Assembly: GCA_003697085.1 (NCBI GenBank)
Contig: RFFU01000074.1
Span: forward strand, 82,600 to 146,599
Source: Candidatus Hydrogenedentota bacterium
GTDB lineage: Bacteria > UBA8481 > J006
Reading direction: 5' to 3'
Length of the DNA stretch: 64,000 nt
Shown: positions 48,439-59,588 of the stretch, one piece after another
Layout: each line of letters starts with the position of its first letter
How positions within the stretch are numbered: the stretch's first letter is position 1
Position numbers and translations under genes: made by a program
The notes under the pieces: model-generated
Seen by the model: only the letters and a program-made list of their open reading frames with translations
Told to the model about the DNA's origin: nothing
The model's database searches: none

Positions 48439-51400
48439 ATGATGTTAATCTTTTTATTTAAGATGGTGAAAAAGAGAAAAAGAGCAACACCTGCTTTTAT
48501 AAGTACCTGGTGTTGGCCGTGCGCCCTGGTGTCCTTTCTTCTCGGAAACTTGATTTTTGGTGTCGCGCCTCCGGCTCGTGCCGCGATAGAAGTCTTCAAT
48601 ATTACGCCGACGATTGTGAAGGCGGGAAGCGGGGCGCCGATAATTATTTCGGGGCAGAATTTTTCCTCGACAACGCCGGTGAAAATCGGTGACAAACCTG
48701 TGTCCCCGGTGGTGTATCTCAATTCGCATACGCTCAAGGTCTCGGTACCGACCTCGCTTGACTCAGGTGTCTATTCGATTACGGTGGGTTCGGGGGCGGA
48801 TTCCGCGACGCTCGTGAATCCGCGGCTCCACGTGCTTTCTTTCGCGGCGGAGGTGGCCTATATCGCCGGAGGGAACGACACCCTGGCTGTCGTCAACCTT
48901 GATGACGGCTCGATCATTACGACCGTGTCGATGCCGGGAATCCTTGGAGGTTCCAACCAGCTTCCTGTTGGAATGGCGGCCGCCCCGGACGGAAACAAGA
49001 TTTTTATCGCCTCCTTTGATGGGGCGTTTCCCAGAAAAATTTACGTGTTTTCGACCGTTTCGAATACTATTGTGGATGAGATTTCCGTCAGTGATCCGGT
49101 TCGGATCCGTATGTTTCCGGGGGGAGAAACATTGGCGGTCATCAGTAATGATCCACCGAATAATGTTCACTTCTTTCGGTTGTCGGATACGACGGAAGTG
49201 TACAGTGGCGGGAGCGTCAGCTGGAACGGCACCGATCTGGCGATGCATCCATCCGGAAAGTACTTTTATGCCATCTATTCAAGTGGAAGCTATATTTCTG
49301 TCATTGATGCCAGGGATGGAACGACGGTGGACAGCATCTCTGTTACTTACAGTGGTGTCGGACCGCATTTCTTGACGATCTCGCCGACGGGGGATTCTCT
49401 GTATGTCAGTTTTTCGGAACAGAATGCGTTCGCGGCGGTGGGGCTAACCGACACGGGGATGATTCGAGGAGACACCGCGGTGATTCCGAAGGCGACGGGG
49501 GTGATGAACAATGCCGTGATGGTAATGAATCTGGATGGAACAAAGCTCTTTTATGGCGGGAATCGGGTTGCGTCGTATGGGGTTACGAATCTAAAGACGG
49601 GAGTCGCGTCGACGATTACAGGAACTTGGAATAATACGAATGGATCTGCAAGGAGTTCCGATGGTCAATACATCTGGGCGACGAATTATTCGACGGAAAC
49701 ATTGAACAAGATTCGAATTTCGGATGATGTCGAGGAAAGTACGATAGACATCACGTCGGCAGGGGGGATCGGAGGGATGGGAATTCTTACGCTGCCGCGA
49801 GTGATTCCGATGAACGATTCGATGATACCGTATATTCAATCGGTATCGCTTTATGTTCCCGTAGGCGGCGAAGTGACGATCAACGGTTTTTTTGACAGTG
49901 CGTCACACTATGGTTTCACCTCCACGGATACGGTTTGGATTGGAGGAATTCCGGTGGAGACAATGACGGTTCTCGGCCAAACTCTGATCAAGGCGACGTT
50001 ACCGTCGTCGATCCCCGCTGATACAGTGGTGGATGTTCTGGTCAAGAATGTCGTTTCGGGCATGACGTCCGATTCTCTTGGGTTTCAACCTCAGGATACG
50101 GTGACGGTGACCGGGCCGGCGCCGACGATTACGGCGATCGTTCCTGACAGCGGTTATTCTGGGGCCGTTACGCCGGTGACCATCACGGGGACCAACTTTG
50201 ATCCGGTGTTGACAAAAGCCTATATTGAAGGAACGGAACTGGCGAACGTAACCTATGTGTCACCAACGCAACTTACAGCGGAGATTCCCAATGGACAAAG
50301 TCCAGGAGTGCACAACATCAGTGTGGCGAACTATCCGGTAAATGAACAGTGGGATACGCTGTGGAACGCCTTTACGGTCAATCAGACACAGATGGAAATT
50401 TCCGGAGCGCTTCCAAGAAATCCCGTGCTCAAAGGCGACTCCTTTTGGATGTGGATCTACGGTTCAGGTTTCGACACGTCCATGGTTCCGACGGTTACAC
50501 TCGGAGGGGTCGCGCTGAGTCGAGTCAAAGTCCCAAATACCAAGGTGATCACGGCTTTTTATGACGGTGTAACGCCGCTGGCTACGGGATGGAACAACGT
50601 GACCGTGAGTTATGGGGCGTTTCCAGATAGTCAGGCGCAGTTGGTTAATGCTGTCGAGGTTTTCGACAGCGGCGCACAGTACATTTATCTGCTTCCTTAC
50701 CTCGATGCTTCCTCCGATTCCCTGTATGTTGTCGATGTCGCCAAGAATGAAGTTGTCGACACCATAGAAGTAGGAAATGTCGGCTTTGATGGAGCGTTGG
50801 ACATTTCTCCGGACGGAGAATATTTGTTGGTTACGGCGTCCGATGGAAAGACCTTGAAGGTCGTTCGCTTGTCGGACAATACAATTGTTTCAACGAAAAC
50901 GTTTTCACAAGTTGTCACGTGCGGGGTCTTTTCGCAGGATGGTTCGGCTGTTTACGTAGGGTACGCTCCTGTTTCGGCTTCCGCCGCGATCAATAAATAT
51001 TCCTTTCCTGGTTTCTCCCTCTTGAAATCCTATCCGACGTCGGGGTCGGTTCTGGACTTTGTGGCAATCTCCCCGTTGGAAGATTATGCTGCTTATGGTC
51101 GGAAATGGGATCCCACGATGAAACTGATGGATTTATCCACGGGAGCCGAGACGATACTGGCGGGAACATATGTCAACGGTTCGGACCGGGATATTTATTT
51201 TTCTCCGGACGGATCGAAACTCTATGTTACCAGTGTTAACGGGGGAGCGACGACGGATTCGCTCGTCGTCGTCGATGTGGCGACAAACACCGTCCTTTAT
51301 GATACGCTTCTTCCTGTGTTGACGGGGGGACAGAACGGCGCCTACAGCCTCGTGTTTCATCCATCAGGCGACACCTACTTTGTGTCCTCTTTCGGCGGCT

Positions 51401-54400
51401 TTATAGCCTTCGATGCAGCGACAAACAGGTTGCTGGATTCCGCCGCCCTCGGTTCACAATCAGGTGGGATCGATATTCTTCCGGACGGAACACGCGTCTA
51501 CCAAGGGGTATCATCGTGGTCCGGATGGGATGGTTGGATTTACGCACCGGTGACCTATCCGGGGGGAAATGTTTCCTTGGGGACCCCCGTTCACACGGGA
51601 ATCCCGGGTGATATTCGTGTTATCCCCAGGGGGGTGAAATATGTCTTTCGCGGCTTGGTACCGCCGCATCTTACGATTGCTTCTCCGGACAGTGGAATAG
51701 AAAATGAAACGCAGACGATTACGTTATACGGAAGCGATTTTTCTCCTACACCGACAGTATATTTCGGGGGAGTGGTCTCTTCTTCCGTTACCTATGTAAG
51801 CTCGACGGAGTTGACGGTCGTAGCCCCCGCATTAACGGCAGGTACCTATGCTATTCGCATTGTCAATCCGGATCTGGGTGAAAGTACGAAAGACAGCGCG
51901 TACACTGTTTATCCCGCTGCGGCTTTCGTTCCGGACACGGCCTTTGGCAGTTTTTACAAGGATCCTTCCCTAAGGGATTCCGTAAGCCTCTTCGTGCCGG
52001 GTGATACGGTGTATTTTCAAGTGGGGGATACGAACCCCAATACGAATGCGGCGCGGCAGGAAACGTTGACGGTGGTGATCATCACGGCAGAAGGGGACAG
52101 CGCATCCCTCCTACTCTATGAGGATGGGGTCTCTTCGGAGACGTTTACCAGCGAAACCACACCTCTCTTTATCACGGACGATGCGGGGATCGGGGTGAAC
52201 GGGACGGACACCTACCTTTACGCAGTGTCTGGGGACACATTTTTTGTTATTTACTCGGATCCCCAGGACACCTCGGATACCTTCTTCTTGGTCGCGATGG
52301 TTCTTTCAGGGGCATCGGTCGGCGTTGTTTCTCTTGACAACGGTCAATACAGCCTCGATTCAACCGTAACGGCCACGGTAATCGACACCGACCAGAACAA
52401 GAACGCGGTACTGGCGGAGACGGTGACAGTTCGGTTGGTGTCGGAGGTCGGAAACGACACGGAATGGCTTATTTTGACGGAGACAGGGAACAACACCAAT
52501 GTTTTTGACAACAGTGGTGCTCCGGTTGCGCTTTCGGATACGACGGGGGCCGATTCGGGTTACGACGGAATTTTGAGGGTCGGGGGGGCGGACACGATCC
52601 ACCTTTTTTACGCGGATCAGTCCGGTAATATTGAAACTTCGGCGGTGACTGTCCCGCGGCAAACCGCTTCTTCGGTCGCATTTGCTTTATCGGAGTACCG
52701 TATTGACTCTTCCGTCACGGTTACGGTGACGGACCCGGACGAGAATCTGAATCCGACGGTAAAGGATCAAGTCCTGGTTTTCTTAACGGAGTTATCGACA
52801 GGTGATACGGAAACGGTGACGTTGACGGAGACGATGGACACGTCGGGAGTCTTTGTCTCGGTGGCAGGTGTCTTTCTTTCTGACACCTACGGGGCGGATT
52901 CGGGCCAGGACGGCGTTCTTCTCTGTGGAGATGCCGATTCGATTCAGGTTCTGTACTGGGATCGAAATTTTTCGGCTGCGGCAGACACGGCGGTGGATAC
53001 GACGAGTGTCTTTTTCAACTCCGGAGCGGGGACCGTGACGTTCATGGCTGTTAATGAGGAACTGGCTATAGGAAGCGAATCCATCGTTATTGTTGTATAT
53101 GATAGAGATGGGAACAAAAATCCGCGCCTCCAGGACAGTGTCTATGTTGAAGTAACCGTTGACGGGACAGCACGGGACACCGAACACCTTGTTCTTTACG
53201 AAACGGGAGATACGACGGCGACGTTTTCGGATTCGGTGGTCGGCTTGGTGTCGCCGCTGAAATCCCAAGAAAACGAAACAGGGACAGCCGACAACGGAAT
53301 CGTCGAGTGGTTGGTTGGAGATATTTTGCGTGTCACATATAGAGATTCCGACGGCGTCAGCCCAGCGGTTCAAGATACGGTTACAGGGGTTTCGTCGGCC
53401 TCGATCGGAAGTTTTTTTGGGATCAAGCTCGTGTACGAACTGGACTCCGCGGTCCTGATCGGTCTCTCGGATACGGATCAAAATCGGAATCTTTCCGCAT
53501 CCGAGACTGTCGAAGTTGTCGTCTTCGATGAGTCGTCGAATGATACCGAGATCGTTGTCCTGACAGAACGTGGAGTAGATTCCTGGTTGTTTGATAACAG
53601 CGGATCGTTGTTGAAATTATCAGACACCTCCGGCGGCGTAGTAGAGAATGATGGAATTCTTTTGGTAGGTGTGGGTGACACGATCCATTTCCGTTACCAG
53701 GATCAATCAGGTTTAATCGATACAACGACGACGACATTATCCCGGCAGACGCTTGCTTCGGTGTCCTTTTCGGTTTCGGAGTATCGAATTGATTCACGAG
53801 TGGTGGGAATAACCGTTTCGGATGCGGACGAGAATTTGTCCCCGCGCCGGAAAGATGTTGTAAAAGTTCTCCTGCGCAGCAATCTTTCCGGCGATACGGA
53901 ATATGTGCTTTTGGAAGAGACGACGGAGACGTCGGGTGTCTTTGTCGACACTGCCGGAGGCGTTCGTCTTTCCGACACGACGGGAAGGCTCTCTCCGTGG
54001 GACGGCGTGATTCTGGCGGGAGCGCCGGACAGCATCACCGTTACTTACGTTGATGAAAACAATGACGCCCTCGCGGACAGTGCCGTCGATAGTGTGACGG
54101 TTCTTTTTTATCCTGGTGCTGCGTCTGTAATCATTGATTCTTCCAACGGAGTCATTCAGACAGGTGCGGAATCTCTGGTGATTTTCGTCTTCGACAGGGA
54201 TCAAAATGCCGATCCGACGGTTCGGGACACGGTATTTGTTCTGGTGACGTTGGATACGCGTTATGCGGACACGGAATATCTTATTCTTCGCGAGACAGCA
54301 GAGACCTCCGGGATTTTCTCGGATTCCATTGCAGGGATCGTTAGGGCTCTGAGCACTGAGAATAATGCTGTTGGAACAGTAAACGACGGCGTTCTGCAGA

Positions 54401-57400
54401 CGATTCTTTTTGATACGATTGTAGTAATTTACAGCGATTCCGATGGAGTCAGTAGCGCTGCTTTTGCAACGATTCGGACGGTAGAACCGATTGTGGCCTC
54501 CCCGTCGTCGATCTCTTTTGGGCTTTCCGCCTATGCTTTGGATTCGTCCCTGACGGTGATTTTGATCGACACCGACCAAAACAGAACGCCGTTTGCTGTG
54601 GAAACCTCAGCAGTGGTTCTCATGGATACCGAAACAAACGATTCGCTTGTGTTGTACCTTACGGAAGCTAATGCCAATAATTCAACTTTCGCTGGAGGTG
54701 CCGTTGATCTTTCCGATACGCTTTCCGGCAGCGGCCGTTTGTTGGTGGGAATGCTCGATCAGGTGATCGTTCAGTATGACGACGGGGACGCGCCGGGCGC
54801 GGGTACAGACTCTTCAACGGCCGTAATGACGATTCTCTTTACAGCTTCAAACGGGGCACTGAACCTTGCAGCGGATACGGTTACACCGGGAGGTACGGGT
54901 CTTTTGGTGACGGTTGAAGATCGTGACAGAAATATGGATCCTGTTTCTCCTGATACGTTAGAGGTGACGTTGAGGACGGTCATACCTGCTCCGGACACAG
55001 AAGTTCTCATCCTAACAGAGACGACGGATACATCGGGGATGTTTACCGGGACGCAATACGTGTCGGATACCACGGGGGCAGGCGTTGGAGACGGGATCTT
55101 GTTAGGACGGGTCGGGGAAACAATCTGGATTCTGTATAGTGATACGAGAGAAGGGCAAACGGATAGCGCCGAGGCAACGGTTCTTATAGAACCTGTCGAG
55201 GAAAGTTCACGGACAGCATTTGATACGGCGGTTTATCTTCAAGATTCGTTCGCCACGGTATTCGTTACCGATGCGGACCAAGACATAGATCCATTTTCTC
55301 CTGACACCGTATTGATTACCTTGAGCAACGGAGTTTTAGGCGCGGAAACGGAAATAGTTGTTTTGACGGAGACAACGGATTCAAGCGGGATCTTTTCGGG
55401 AACGGCGGTTATTTCGTCGAATGTTCTCGATTCCGTTGCCGGAAACGGAAGGCTTTTTGCGGGAGTCGGGGATTCGATTGTGGCGTTTTATACTGATCCG
55501 ACGCGACAGAGTGATACATCGGTGGATACGGCCCTTGTGTTAGCCGTTCCAAGTGTTTCAACGGTGATTCTGGACGATTTGGGGTATGCTTGGGATTCCG
55601 CAGTGACCGTAACAGTGGTGGATACGGATCAGAATCGGAATCGTAATCTTCAAGAAACAGTGACCGTAATCGTATCCGACACAGAAACGAATGATAGTGT
55701 TGTTATTGTGTTGACCGAGTCGGGAGTTAACAGTTCGCTTTTCACGTCGTCGGCTTTGCGGCTTTCGGACACGGCGGGGGGGGAGAGCACGCTTTTGGCC
55801 GGGGCGGGAGATTTATTTAGTGTTGAGTATGAAGACAGGGATTTCCCCGGGATCGGAAATGATACTTCTTTTGGAATAGCCACGGTGCTTTTTATCCCGT
55901 CGTCCGGCACTTTGTCGCTTGCTTCAGACACTGTATCTCCGGGGGCGACCGTTGTGGTGACCGTTGCGGATGCTGATGAAAACATGGATCCTTTGGTCCG
56001 CGATACTCTTGAGGTCATTCTCGTAACCACTGTTCCGGGGGATGATACGGAAATCTTAGAATTGACTGAGACGACGGAGACCTCCGGGATCTTTGCCAAC
56101 GGAAACGGCCAGTGGGTGTCGGATACGACGGGAGCAGGGGTTGGGGACGGTATTCTCCTCGGGCGTATCGGATCGCAAATCCGGGTCGTGTATTCGGATA
56201 CGAGGAACGGCCAGAATGATCGTTCGGAAACAACGGTAACGATTGAAGTAGTGCGAAGTTCGGCGGTCCTGACGTTCGATTTGAGTAAATATACCCCGGA
56301 TACTCCCGTTCGGATCACTGTGACCGATTTCGATCAGAATTTGAATTCTTTTGCAACGGAAACGGTATTTGTGATTCTTGAAAATTTGAACGTGGCGTCG
56401 GAAACGGAAATTTATGAATTGAGAGAAACAACGGAATCGAGCGGAATCTTCCTTGGGACCGCCTCCCTTTCCGATACACCAACGGATTCGGGAGTTTATG
56501 GGGACGGCGTTTTGTATGCGGAACCGGGTCATTTGATTCGAGCGATGTATCAGGATTCCGTCGCGGCGAGCGATACGGCAGCGGAAACGGCCGCAGTGGT
56601 GTCACGGGTTCCCCCTACGGCCAGCACGATCCAGCTTGATAGTACCGACTATCGATTGACAGAGCGTTTTACGATAACGGTTACGGATCCGGATGAGAAT
56701 CAAAAAGGATGGGTTGTGGATCAGGTGACGGTGAGGGTGGTATCAAATGGACCTTTGGCGGATACGGAGACGTTTACTTTGACGGAACAGAGCCCCAATG
56801 CCGGGATATTTGTTTCGAATCCGATAGACCTTTCTGATACCAATACGACTGAGGGGGATGGTATCCTTGGAATAACGGTCGGGGCAACACTGACGGCGTC
56901 CTATGTTGATAAGGATGACGCGACGGATTCGGCCAGTGTTCAGGCCACAGCTGTAGCGGTGTTGACACATTCCATTTCAGAATTTGTGGATCAGGGGGGA
57001 GTCGCGAGATCATCCTTCATAATGGGAACGGACACGATTCAAATCCGGGTTGTCGATGCCAACCAGAATAAAAACTCCTTGGCGATCGAGACGATCAATC
57101 TCGGACCTGTTTTTACTTCCGCCTCCGGTGATGCAAATTCCGTGACGCTCACCGAAAGTGATTCCGCCAGTGGAATATTCTTATCGCAGGAATTTTCGAT
57201 GGATACGGGGGCCAATGCTGATAACGCCGTTGTGAGTGTCGACACCTCTTTGGAGCAGATCACATTTGTGTATACGGATCCTGATGATCCGGCCGATACT
57301 TCCATGATTTCGGCGCAGGTGGTGTTCGCTATCCCGCCGATAGCCGCTTTGAAGTTTGAAGCCGTTCCGGGAAATGGAGGGACCACGGTGATCAACATCT

Positions 57401-58419
57401 ATCCTTTGACTTCGGCTGGTGATACTTCTGTGAGTTATGATGGAGCGCAGGTGCTGGCGACGCAGAAAAATTTTGGGACGGCAACAGGAGGCCTGCTGGA
57501 TACGGGAGGTTTCATCTCAAATGGGAAGGTTGCAGTAGGGTATGACAAGATTGAAAATGCGCGCCTCTATCTCGCGATCACGATACAAGGAACGCTTTTT
57601 AATGGCGTCGTGAATCTTTCGGATCGACCGAATGGAAAGGTTGATTTTGTATCTCAAATGGAAACGGGGGGCGTATTCTTGGTTTTGAACGTGGACTCGC
57701 GCATTACAAGCGGGGTCGATTCCTTTTCCATCGTTGGAAATTCCGGGTTCAATGACTCGCAGTTAATATATATTCAAACGGGAGATACGCTTTTGGAGCA
57801 GATCCCGGGCCGGGTCTTACTGCGAAAGGTATCGGGTGGGGAAGTCCTTCCGGAATTTTCCGTATTGGCGATAAGAGATTCTGGAATTCAGATTCATGAA
57901 TTCTCAGATACCCCCTTGGTTGTTCGCATCTACTATCCGGATGCCGACAACGACGGATACGTCGATACCACGGCAGGAAAGGTTTTGGAAAAGAGTCTGC
58001 TGATGTACTCTATGGAGGAATCGGAGACGGGGGCTCGGCGTTGGACGCGCGTTGAAGGAGCGCGAGTGAATGCAGAGGAAAATTTCGTCGAGGCGACAGT
58101 ATATCATTTGACACTCTTTACTCTTGTAGGAGGAACGGCGACGAAGTCGCTGTCTTCATTCATCGTATATCCGAATCCGTTTCGTCCGAAATTGGGGCAC
58201 AAGAGTGTTATCTTCGATAATCTTCCTTCGGGGGCGACGGTGCAGATTTATACGATTTCCGGTGATTTGGTCGACGAAAAGGTGGTCCCTGCGGGGAGTA
58301 ATCGTTTGCAATGGGACGGACGCAACGCCTTCGGCCGACTCGTTGTTAGTGGGGTTTATATCTATCGGATCTCCACAACGAGTGAGAGTAAAGTAGGAAA
58401 GTTATTCGTGATTCGGTGA
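48439..58419 (+). CDS. giant secreted adhesin-like protein (3326 aa): signal peptide, IPT/TIG domains, YVTN-type beta-propeller repeats, about 15 tandem ~110-aa DxDxNxN repeats, a conserved pre-CTD module, and a T9SS (FlgD-Ig-type) C-terminal sorting domain
   Basis: The ORF is continuous. N-terminal signal and TM-like segment. IPT-like IEVFNITPTIVKAGSGAPIIISGQNFS and ITAIVPDSGYSGAVTPVTITGTNFD. YVTN-like repeats (AVVNLDDGSIITTV..., IYVFSTVSNTIVDEISV). The C-terminus IVYPNPFRPKLGHKSVIFDNLPSGATVQIYTISGDLV...GVYIYRISTTSESKVGKLFVIR matches T9SS type-A CTDs. Confidence 0.92.
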   Translation: MMLIFLFKMVKKRKRATPAFISTWCWPCALVSFLLGNLIFGVAPPARAAIEVFNITPTIVKAGSGAPIIISGQNFSSTTPVKIGDKPVSPVVYLNSHTLKVSVPTSLDSGVYSITVGSGADSATLVNPRLHVLSFAAEVAYIAGGNDTLAVVNLDDGSIITTVSMPGILGGSNQLPVGMAAAPDGNKIFIASFDGAFPRKIYVFSTVSNTIVDEISVSDPVRIRMFPGGETLAVISNDPPNNVHFFRLSDTTEVYSGGSVSWNGTDLAMHPSGKYFYAIYSSGSYISVIDARDGTTVDSISVTYSGVGPHFLTISPTGDSLYVSFSEQNAFAAVGLTDTGMIRGDTAVIPKATGVMNNAVMVMNLDGTKLFYGGNRVASYGVTNLKTGVASTITGTWNNTNGSARSSDGQYIWATNYSTETLNKIRISDDVEESTIDITSAGGIGGMGILTLPRVIPMNDSMIPYIQSVSLYVPVGGEVTINGFFDSASHYGFTSTDTVWIGGIPVETMTVLGQTLIKATLPSSIPADTVVDVLVKNVVSGMTSDSLGFQPQDTVTVTGPAPTITAIVPDSGYSGAVTPVTITGTNFDPVLTKAYIEGTELANVTYVSPTQLTAEIPNGQSPGVHNISVANYPVNEQWDTLWNAFTVNQTQMEISGALPRNPVLKGDSFWMWIYGSGFDTSMVPTVTLGGVALSRVKVPNTKVITAFYDGVTPLATGWNNVTVSYGAFPDSQAQLVNAVEVFDSGAQYIYLLPYLDASSDSLYVVDVAKNEVVDTIEVGNVGFDGALDISPDGEYLLVTASDGKTLKVVRLSDNTIVSTKTFSQVVTCGVFSQDGSAVYVGYAPVSASAAINKYSFPGFSLLKSYPTSGSVLDFVAISPLEDYAAYGRKWDPTMKLMDLSTGAETILAGTYVNGSDRDIYFSPDGSKLYVTSVNGGATTDSLVVVDVATNTVLYDTLLPVLTGGQNGAYSLVFHPSGDTYFVSSFGGFIAFDAATNRLLDSAALGSQSGGIDILPDGTRVYQGVSSWSGWDGWIYAPVTYPGGNVSLGTPVHTGIPGDIRVIPRGVKYVFRGLVPPHLTIASPDSGIENETQTITLYGSDFSPTPTVYFGGVVSSSVTYVSSTELTVVAPALTAGTYAIRIVNPDLGESTKDSAYTVYPAAAFVPDTAFGSFYKDPSLRDSVSLFVPGDTVYFQVGDTNPNTNAARQETLTVVIITAEGDSASLLLYEDGVSSETFTSETTPLFITDDAGIGVNGTDTYLYAVSGDTFFVIYSDPQDTSDTFFLVAMVLSGASVGVVSLDNGQYSLDSTVTATVIDTDQNKNAVLAETVTVRLVSEVGNDTEWLILTETGNNTNVFDNSGAPVALSDTTGADSGYDGILRVGGADTIHLFYADQSGNIETSAVTVPRQTASSVAFALSEYRIDSSVTVTVTDPDENLNPTVKDQVLVFLTELSTGDTETVTLTETMDTSGVFVSVAGVFLSDTYGADSGQDGVLLCGDADSIQVLYWDRNFSAAADTAVDTTSVFFNSGAGTVTFMAVNEELAIGSESIVIVVYDRDGNKNPRLQDSVYVEVTVDGTARDTEHLVLYETGDTTATFSDSVVGLVSPLKSQENETGTADNGIVEWLVGDILRVTYRDSDGVSPAVQDTVTGVSSASIGSFFGIKLVYELDSAVLIGLSDTDQNRNLSASETVEVVVFDESSNDTEIVVLTERGVDSWLFDNSGSLLKLSDTSGGVVENDGILLVGVGDTIHFRYQDQSGLIDTTTTTLSRQTLASVSFSVSEYRIDSRVVGITVSDADENLSPRRKDVVKVLLRSNLSGDTEYVLLEETTETSGVFVDTAGGVRLSDTTGRLSPWDGVILAGAPDSITVTYVDENNDALADSAVDSVTVLFYPGAASVIIDSSNGVIQTGAESLVIFVFDRDQNADPTVRDTVFVLVTLDTRYADTEYLILRETAETSGIFSDSIAGIVRALSTENNAVGTVNDGVLQTILFDTIVVIYSDSDGVSSAAFATIRTVEPIVASPSSISFGLSAYALDSSLTVILIDTDQNRTPFAVETSAVVLMDTETNDSLVLYLTEANANNSTFAGGAVDLSDTLSGSGRLLVGMLDQVIVQYDDGDAPGAGTDSSTAVMTILFTASNGALNLAADTVTPGGTGLLVTVEDRDRNMDPVSPDTLEVTLRTVIPAPDTEVLILTETTDTSGMFTGTQYVSDTTGAGVGDGILLGRVGETIWILYSDTREGQTDSAEATVLIEPVEESSRTAFDTAVYLQDSFATVFVTDADQDIDPFSPDTVLITLSNGVLGAETEIVVLTETTDSSGIFSGTAVISSNVLDSVAGNGRLFAGVGDSIVAFYTDPTRQSDTSVDTALVLAVPSVSTVILDDLGYAWDSAVTVTVVDTDQNRNRNLQETVTVIVSDTETNDSVVIVLTESGVNSSLFTSSALRLSDTAGGESTLLAGAGDLFSVEYEDRDFPGIGNDTSFGIATVLFIPSSGTLSLASDTVSPGATVVVTVADADENMDPLVRDTLEVILVTTVPGDDTEILELTETTETSGIFANGNGQWVSDTTGAGVGDGILLGRIGSQIRVVYSDTRNGQNDRSETTVTIEVVRSSAVLTFDLSKYTPDTPVRITVTDFDQNLNSFATETVFVILENLNVASETEIYELRETTESSGIFLGTASLSDTPTDSGVYGDGVLYAEPGHLIRAMYQDSVAASDTAAETAAVVSRVPPTASTIQLDSTDYRLTERFTITVTDPDENQKGWVVDQVTVRVVSNGPLADTETFTLTEQSPNAGIFVSNPIDLSDTNTTEGDGILGITVGATLTASYVDKDDATDSASVQATAVAVLTHSISEFVDQGGVARSSFIMGTDTIQIRVVDANQNKNSLAIETINLGPVFTSASGDANSVTLTESDSASGIFLSQEFSMDTGANADNAVVSVDTSLEQITFVYTDPDDPADTSMISAQVVFAIPPIAALKFEAVPGNGGTTVINIYPLTSAGDTSVSYDGAQVLATQKNFGTATGGLLDTGGFISNGKVAVGYDKIENARLYLAITIQGTLFNGVVNLSDRPNGKVDFVSQMETGGVFLVLNVDSRITSGVDSFSIVGNSGFNDSQLIYIQTGDTLLEQIPGRVLLRKVSGGEVLPEFSVLAIRDSGIQIHEFSDTPLVVRIYYPDADNDGYVDTTAGKVLEKSLLMYSMEESETGARRWTRVEGARVNAEENFVEATVYHLTLFTLVGGTATKSLSSFIVYPNPFRPKLGHKSVIFDNLPSGATVQIYTISGDLVDEKVVPAGSNRLQWDGRNAFGRLVVSGVYIYRISTTSESKVGKLFVIR
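51970..57300 (+). repeat. array of about 15 tandem ~110-aa protein repeats (approximate bounds) with the signature [VI]x[DT]xDxNxN...DTExxxLTETxxxSGxF...LSDTxG...DG[IV]L...GDxIxxxYxD
   Basis: The repeat units are read directly in the translation (e.g. IDSSVTVTVTDPDENLNPTVKDQVLVFLTELSTGDTETVTLTETMDTSGVFVSVAGVFLSDTYGADSGQDGVLLCGDADSIQVLYWD). Units are divergent at the DNA level. Confidence 0.7.
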
Positions 58420-59588
58420 TGGAGAACATGGCAACAAGAAACAAACGGATGCTGCTTTCGGCGTTATTATTCCTTTTGATGTTAATATCAGCGACGGGAG
58501 GAGCCGGCCCGGCGAAGGCCTTGACCCCCGATCCTCTGGCAGGGACATCCGGGGTTCAGTTTTTGAATTTCGGGCGCGGCCCGCAGATTATCGCGCTGGG
58601 AGAGAGCTACAATGCGCGTGTATTAGGAGCGGCCGGAATATTTGGGAATCCCGCGTCGATTAGTTTTGCTCAAGACGCTGAAATGATGTTCAGTTTTAAC
58701 CGAATGATAGCGGACATAAATCACAGTCTCTTTTCTTATGTCTCGCCGAATATGATCCATGATCGCTATTCTTTCGCCCTGGGCGCAATTTATACATCGT
58801 TCGGTCGTATTACTGCTCGGGATGCAACAGGGTTCGAACTGGGAAGGAAGCAAGCGTATTCGGCAGCGGTGTTGGCGACAATCTCCGCGAAGTATAATGA
58901 ACATTTTTCGGCGGCCGTTACGTTCAAGGGGATTGGAGAGAGGATCGCGGATGTATACGGGACGGGAATCGCTTTTGACGGAGGCATATATTTCCGGAAC
59001 GTGTTGATTCCGAATCTCGATTTCGGTGCATCGGTGCAAAACATCGGACCTGGTTTGACATTCGACAAAGAAAGCACGCCGTTAACACTGATTTACGGCG
59101 GGGGCTTTTCCTACCGGCCGCCGCGGATCCCGTTGCGCATTTCTCTGGATTTTCAAAAACCTCGCGATGAGAAAACCTCCGCCATGCTGGGGGCGGAGTG
59201 GGACGTGAGGAATCTTCTTTACCTTCGTGGTGGGTGGCGGGAGCGTAGTGGCGCGCGAAGCCATTTTTCGGCCGGAATGGGAATCAGGGTCAATAACGTG
59301 GTTCTGGATTATTCGTATGTCAGGTCGGAGTTTTTAGGCAATACACACAGCATTGCGCTCCGGTATGAGTTTTGGCCGAAGAAGCATTCAGGGGAATCCA
59401 AAAGATACCGTACGGTGGAAAAGGCGGGAAAATATGTGACCGTTGAAGAATCGCCTGGTTCGAGAAGTAATAACTCCGAAAAAACGGAAAAGTCGGTTTC
59501 GAAAAAGGAATCGACCGGAAATGAAAAAACGTCGGCACCGACGCCGCAAAAAACTCCCAGCGAGGGCGAGGATCTATTGGAATTCTGA
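58416..59588 (+). CDS. outer-membrane beta-barrel protein translationally coupled to the giant T9SS cargo gene (PorP/SprF- or PorV-like position); Lys/Glu/Ser-rich C-terminal tail
   Basis: The ATG at 58419 overlaps the upstream TGA stop (TGATG). N-terminal signal peptide LLSALLFLLMLISATGGAGPAKA. Alternating amphipathic beta-strand pattern. The barrel ends in the aromatic-terminal strand HSIALRYEF, followed by a ~70-aa low-complexity tail. Confidence 0.65.
   Translation: MMENMATRNKRMLLSALLFLLMLISATGGAGPAKALTPDPLAGTSGVQFLNFGRGPQIIALGESYNARVLGAAGIFGNPASISFAQDAEMMFSFNRMIADINHSLFSYVSPNMIHDRYSFALGAIYTSFGRITARDATGFELGRKQAYSAAVLATISAKYNEHFSAAVTFKGIGERIADVYGTGIAFDGGIYFRNVLIPNLDFGASVQNIGPGLTFDKESTPLTLIYGGGFSYRPPRIPLRISLDFQKPRDEKTSAMLGAEWDVRNLLYLRGGWRERSGARSHFSAGMGIRVNNVVLDYSYVRSEFLGNTHSIALRYEFWPKKHSGESKRYRTVEKAGKYVTVEESPGSRSNNSEKTEKSVSKKESTGNEKTSAPTPQKTPSEGEDLLEF

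Follow-up and report, generated by a model that had tools for sequence, protein, structure and literature searches.

The window, a 64,000-nucleotide stretch of a contig from a Candidatus Hydrogenedentota bacterium, has as its largest gene (the longest of the open reading frames listed, as a preliminary description had stated) one that encodes a 3,326-aa protein. An exact sequence look-up found the same sequence (100%) as NCBI RMH57045.1, labeled [quoted passage not shown] The protein consists, in this order, of a probable leader, a TIG/propeller head, 15 acidic repeats, a pre-CTD module, and a T9SS C-terminal sorting domain (CTD). A gene for an outer-membrane barrel overlaps its stop codon. 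The features are located as follows.

48439..58419, + strand: giant gene, ATG start, 3,326 aa (open reading frame list and translation)
48439..48582, + strand: probable Sec signal peptide, aa 1-48 (read by eye from the translation)
48589..48801, + strand: TIG/IPT domain 1, aa 51-121 (Pfam TIG, local HMM iteration)
48844..49833, + strand: beta-propeller-like region 1 with YVTN-like blades, aa 136-465 (homology to region 2; approximate boundaries)
49846..50619, + strand: TIG domains 2 to 4, aa ~470-541, 562-637, and 654-727 (Pfam TIG, local HMM iteration)
50674..51663, + strand: beta-propeller-like region 2, aa 746-1075 (Beta-prop_THOC3, EML_2, PD40, hydrazine_beta, and QH_beta matches)
51664..51885, + strand: TIG domain 5, aa 1076-1149 (NF058597, TIG_SUH, local HMM iteration)
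51967..57360, + strand: fifteen tandem acidic beta-sandwich domains of the NmSLP/Kustd1514 type, aa 1177-2974, with units starting at aa 1177, 1296, 1412, 1535, 1658, 1774, 1899, 2024, 2141, 2258, 2375, 2491, 2610, 2730, and 2853
57361..58164, + strand: pre-CTD module, aa 2975-3242 (no family match)
58165..58416, + strand: T9SS C-terminal sorting domain, aa 3243-3326 (TIGR04183, PorZ model, FlgD_ig)
58416..59588, + strand: PorV/PorQ-family outer-membrane beta-barrel gene (NF033709, junction sequence, conserved synteny)

In the translation, the putative leader shows KKRKR as its n-region, then a hydrophobic core, and ARA↓A as the site; Met9 may be the true start of the protein. The Pfam TIG model matched the protein with 109 bits in four stretches, and local HMM iteration located five TIG domains in the head, the last of which also fits the choice-of-anchor Z repeat model NF058597 (76.3 bits; cutoff, 30). 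The same iteration showed that the two propeller-like regions are homologous to each other. Region 2 was matched by the THOC3 propeller (46.6 bits) and hydrazine synthase beta (33 bits) models, and region 1 was matched by the hydrazine synthase beta chain PDB 5c2v_B (E = 1.7e-4) and weakly by ANAPC4_WD40. These matches, weak but consistent, suggest that both regions are beta-propellers. Together with the match to a T9SS CTD, they bear out the earlier view of a giant T9SS-type surface protein with N-terminal TIG and propeller modules. None of the 150 best representatives of the repeat family shares this head. No carbohydrate-binding module was detected in the giant protein in scans with Pfam and NCBIfam-type models.

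The repeats, previously put at about 15 units of ~110 aa, were found by iterated search to number exactly 15 (matched over aa 1187-2956), with a greater length of 116 to 125 aa each. A non-circular phmmer search with the single seed R2 recovered all of the 14 remaining units, with E values from 8e-5 to 3e-27. The units are divergent, as had been noted, with pairwise identities of 14 to 63%. They form a super-repeat of three units, as seen in the identities of R2/R5 (47%), R3/R6 (56%), and R4/R7 (42%) and, in a second set, of R8/R11 (45%), R9/R12 (63%), and R10/R13 (40%). Tandem Repeats Finder detected no DNA-level tandem repeat in the giant gene, indicating that the duplications are old.

The strings TDPDENLNP, DTDQNKN, and DRDGNKNP, quoted in the preliminary description, all occur in the protein, and the alignment of the units confirmed the LTETxxxSGxF core and the YxD end. 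The DxDxNxN motif had been ascribed to every repeat; its DxDxN part is present in 12 of the 15 units and the full motif in just 6, while DxDxNx[N/D] fits 9 units as read from the alignment. Six positions (D21, L51, E53, F61, Y96, and D98) are invariant across all units. The repeat region has a net charge of -202 and contains 10% D, 12.6% T, 10.4% S, and 0.7% K. The sequon D[ST][AILVMT] occurs in excess (47 observed versus 19.4 ± 3.9 in shuffled sequences).

Pfam gave no match to the repeats in the whole protein, in four single units, or in four named relatives. The repeat had been called not a standard named domain, which is correct in that no Pfam or curated domain model covers it; yet it is not unplaceable, because a solved homologue exists in the S-layer protein NmSLP of Nitrosopumilus maritimus (Nmar_1547; PDB 8C8K, 8C8L, 8C8M, 8C8O, and 8C8R; von Kuegelgen et al., Nature 2024, PMC11153153). 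The closest relatives of the repeat are the Ig-like domains of NmSLP and the Kustd1514 anammox S-layer family, and at the level of the domain the earlier term "S-layer-like" was apt. When the 15-unit profile was compared with PDB sequences, the sole significant match was NmSLP (E = 2.6e-6, in several stretches), represented by 8c8k and five more entries of identical sequence. The aligned stretches have VxVxDxDxN, ETGxxTGxF-type, and YxD motifs in common.

A structure model of a single unit, built from 81 sequences, reached a pLDDT of 93 and was used in place of a two-repeat model (7 sequences; pLDDT, 65). With this model, Foldseek returned only three entries at E ≤ 1e-3, all of them NmSLP, with a TM score of 0.79. 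The modeled repeat is therefore predicted to have the fold of the NmSLP domains, clearly apart from other beta-sandwiches. The second-best structural match was 6xi3, the extender region of a large biofilm adhesin. Cadherin EC, Calx-beta, and macroglobulin (MG) domains were also compared with the repeat. The cadherin-like guess did not hold, as single units had no Pfam cadherin match at E ≤ 10 and cadherin and protocadherin entries of the PDB gave E values of 1.3 to 7.8; cadherin identity was likewise rejected on structure (Foldseek TM, 0.31). The VCBS-like guess was rejected on scores. Calx-beta and Big, either of which had been named as a match that would lower the novelty of the repeat, were rejected on scores in the Pfam, PDB sequence, and Foldseek comparisons, and neither matched.

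The Kustd1514 S-layer model NF052345 matched the giant protein with 194.2 bits (E = 2.5e-57) in 8 stretches; for example, aa 2053-2370 align with model positions 958-1281. Membership in that family was rejected, with a score of 194.2 bits versus a cutoff of 1,400, and the repeat type alone is in common.

An exhaustive HMMER search found 5,019 representatives of the repeat family at 50% identity. A word-indexed homologue search had returned only 5 proteins with three units and 1 with the unit profile, a tiny yield attributable to the limits of the index. Counted locally, the relatives carry from a few to ~44 copies of the repeat; the remote search gave as many as 50 matched stretches. The repeat is also present in a 4,788-aa Psychroserpens T9SS type B "gliding motility-associated" protein, and at least one paralogue of the giant protein lies on the same contig. 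One relative of nearly the same length (P0159; 3,325 aa) was rejected as an orthologue, having the repeat region alone in common at 29% identity.

The pre-CTD module matched no family and no PDB entry; among the 150 best relatives, four contain it as a whole. The CTD passed the type A model TIGR04183 marginally (27.6 bits; cutoff, 23), and FlgD_ig matched the C-terminal fragment with 29.1 bits (cutoff, 27). Scores for Pfam PF18962 (20.5; cutoff, 27) and for the type B model CHU_C (16.3 bits; cutoff, 27) were below threshold. The C-terminal part of the PorZ model matched with 48.1 bits (E = 6e-13), and the top PDB sequence match of the CTD was 5m11_A, residues 658-751 (E = 1.5e-5). By sequence comparison, the CTD appears most like that of PorZ; the higher score with the PorZ model may mirror the specificity of the model and not function. 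The C terminus had been described as shared with the 2,021-aa protein of the window. This is true of the CTD and of the ~100 aa that precede it in the pre-CTD module (aa 3145-3326 versus aa 1832-2021; 35% identity; E = 5e-23) but not of the whole module. Type A cargos are usually cleaved by PorU and then held on anionic LPS or released. PorZ, which is seated on PorQ, retains its CTD, as does PorU (PMC10947112). It has been hypothesized in a 2023 review that CTDs are shielded from cleavage by cognate PorV-like barrels (PMC10202324).

The barrel gene, absent from the preliminary description, bears on how the giant protein stays at the surface. It corresponds to NCBI locus D6679_07945, a "hypothetical protein" of 389 to 390 aa, and starts either at the GTG at 58416, which gives a 4-nt overlap with the stop of the giant gene, or at the ATG at 58419, which gives a 1-nt overlap. 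Its product has a barrel (aa ~44-319) behind a signal peptide and, after the barrel, a tail of ~70 aa rich in K, E, and S. It matched NF033709 over model positions 1-326 with 136.1 bits (cutoff, 90) and was below the equivalog cutoffs for PorQ (NF033711; 89.7 versus 220) and PorV (NF033710; 59 versus 250). The barrels of relatives were likewise under both cutoffs, with the PorQ score higher than the PorV score.

A PorV/PorQ-family gene (127 to 188 bits) is located directly downstream in all five relatives that have both repeats and CTD, three of which have the same 4-nt stop overlap. In the reverse search from the barrel, three of four contexts looked up were informative, and all three barrels adjoin a large cargo; two of them follow the cargo and overlap it by 4 nt, and the third precedes it. 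For the two of these cargos with DNA available, the CTDs resemble that of the giant protein. The pairing is also seen beside cargos with unrelated stalk domains. The single 2,021-aa T9SS cargo of the window, which bears glycoside-hydrolase modules, is followed by a response-regulator-like open reading frame and has no adjoining barrel.

On the same strand, the genes upstream of the giant gene encode a LacI regulator, ABC sugar transporter components, GH172/DUF2961, a fucose isomerase-like protein, and an FGGY kinase, and those downstream encode GH31 and a GDSL esterase. The 509-nt gap upstream of the giant gene suggests that it has its own promoter as a separate transcription unit; no sigma-70-like promoter was found upstream of the gene. 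The neighborhoods of relatives are different and include, for example, ExbBD/TonB and LpxK. Among the scanned open reading frames of the 64-kb window, none of the T9SS core genes SprA/Sov, PorKLMN, and PorU were seen.

We consider it likely, with a probability of roughly 55%, that the giant protein is a T9SS-exported surface fiber with its own barrel as outer-membrane holder and a propeller/TIG head borne on an acidic stalk. [quoted passage not shown] Its PorZ-like CTD would be taken up by the cotranslated cognate barrel and probably left uncleaved, with the C terminus docked noncovalently on the outer membrane, as PorZ is on PorQ and type B cargos are on PorP/SprF. The barrel may act as a shuttle or as an anchor. 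The 15 domains would form a polyanionic stalk tens of nanometers long, in which divalent cations at D21/D23/N25/E53/D97, a cluster of conserved residues, may add stiffness; we infer cation binding by the repeats from the conserved acidic residues alone. The stalk would keep the head off the cell for ligand capture, and the sugar-utilization neighbors, by gene neighborhood alone, hint at a glycan as the ligand.

The variable copy number of the repeat, the Psychroserpens type B protein, the 6xi3 match, and the paralogue on the same contig speak for a fiber; both characterized proteins with the repeat domain, by contrast, are S-layer proteins and not adhesins. That S-layer proteins are its sole characterized bearers favors a coat, in which the Ig-like array would tile a polyanionic two-dimensional lattice around the outer membrane, exported by the T9SS like TfsA/TfsB of Tannerella forsythia, and might serve to gather cations at the surface of the cell. 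T9SS-dependent S-layers are already known, the charge of the repeats parallels the negatively charged, EGTA-sensitive lattice of NmSLP, and Thr/Ser-rich repeats with an excess of the sequon would suit a glycoprotein coat. Nevertheless, we regard a coat as unlikely. The giant protein is about twice as long as NmSLP (1,734 aa) or the Kustd1514 model (1,596 positions), scores 194 bits where the Kustd1514 family takes 1,400, and bears a large propeller/TIG head; because no other of the 150 best representatives shares this head, it is not a conserved housekeeping coat. A wide range of copy numbers and more than one paralogue per genome are features expected more of a fibrillar adhesin.

One observation against anchoring is that the CTD scores above the cutoff of the generic type A model as well. 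An ordinary type A cargo would have its CTD cut by a PorU-like sortase and would be linked to glycolipid or released, with the barrel serving as a general PorV/PorQ protein. Besides the TIGR04183 match, the 2,021-aa cargo, whose CTD is 35% identical and has no adjoining barrel, fits such a scheme, and all type A CTDs use a single PorV shuttle according to one report (PMC12618676). We judge it distinctly unlikely, as the stop-overlap pairing recurs beside different giant cargos in several lineages, a pattern that a lone housekeeping PorV would not be expected to show, and the barrels fall under both the PorV and PorQ equivalog cutoffs. It is very unlikely that the giant protein is part of a sugar-utilization cluster and captures polysaccharide with a glycan-binding head, like the surface glycan-binding proteins of Bacteroidota PULs. 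Sugar-utilization genes do flank the giant gene on the same strand, and the other T9SS cargo of the window has glycoside-hydrolase modules. However, relatives are found in unrelated neighborhoods, no carbohydrate-binding module was detected, and the 509-nt gap argues for separate transcription.

Of the systems with which the surface fiber can be compared, NmSLP differs in being archaeal, with 1,734 aa and ten heterogeneous domains, and in lacking the T9SS signal, propeller/TIG head, and cognate barrel of the giant protein. It has been shown to form a hexagonal, ammonium-binding lattice. The Kustd1514 S-layer glycoprotein of anammox Planctomycetota (NF052345; van Teeseling et al. 2016, PMC5088730) has the repeat type in common, but its family has another length, other terminal modules, and another route of export. 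A further comparison was with fibrillar adhesins that bear Ig-like extender repeats, such as the large adhesion protein Lap (PDB 6XI3) and Flavobacterium SprB. PorZ-PorQ and type B/PorP-SprF of Bacteroidota are alike in joining a CTD-bearing surface protein with a PorV-like barrel (PMC10947112, PMC9143113, PMC12618676, and PMC10202324). The pairing of type B cargos with their barrels is genetic, as for the giant gene. In contrast to the PorP/SprF systems, the giant cargo passes the type A and not the type B model, and its barrel is of the PorV/PorQ family. The cargo-barrel pairs described here are outside Bacteroidota (Hydrogenedentota and Lindowbacteria), and the two partners are predicted to interact.

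To date, work on surface retention has been limited to type B cargos and PorZ in Bacteroidota, and the cargo-barrel pairing is a testable hypothesis for how T9SS-like systems of candidate phyla retain very large proteins. As a tentative and somewhat doubtful generalization, giants with PorZ-like CTDs outside Bacteroidota may each bring a translationally coupled, dedicated PorV/PorQ-family anchor, which would add a third mode of cargo-specific T9SS docking to PorU/A-LPS and type B/PorP-SprF; their stalk would represent an acidic Ig-like module, ancient and uncurated, common to bacterial T9SS fibers and the S-layers of ammonia-oxidizing archaea and anammox bacteria, for cation-dependent assembly or capture. 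These findings extend known designs and do not overturn current understanding. With its 5,019 representatives and dozens of copies per protein, the repeat is among the more widespread extracellular domains without a model in the copy of Pfam searched. NmSLP provides its structural anchor. With a curated model, giant proteins now labeled "hypothetical" would gain an annotation by the thousands, and bacterial T9SS fibers would be tied to the S-layers of archaea and anammox bacteria. The giant protein points to a major surface structure in Hydrogenedentota, a group that lacks a cultured model.

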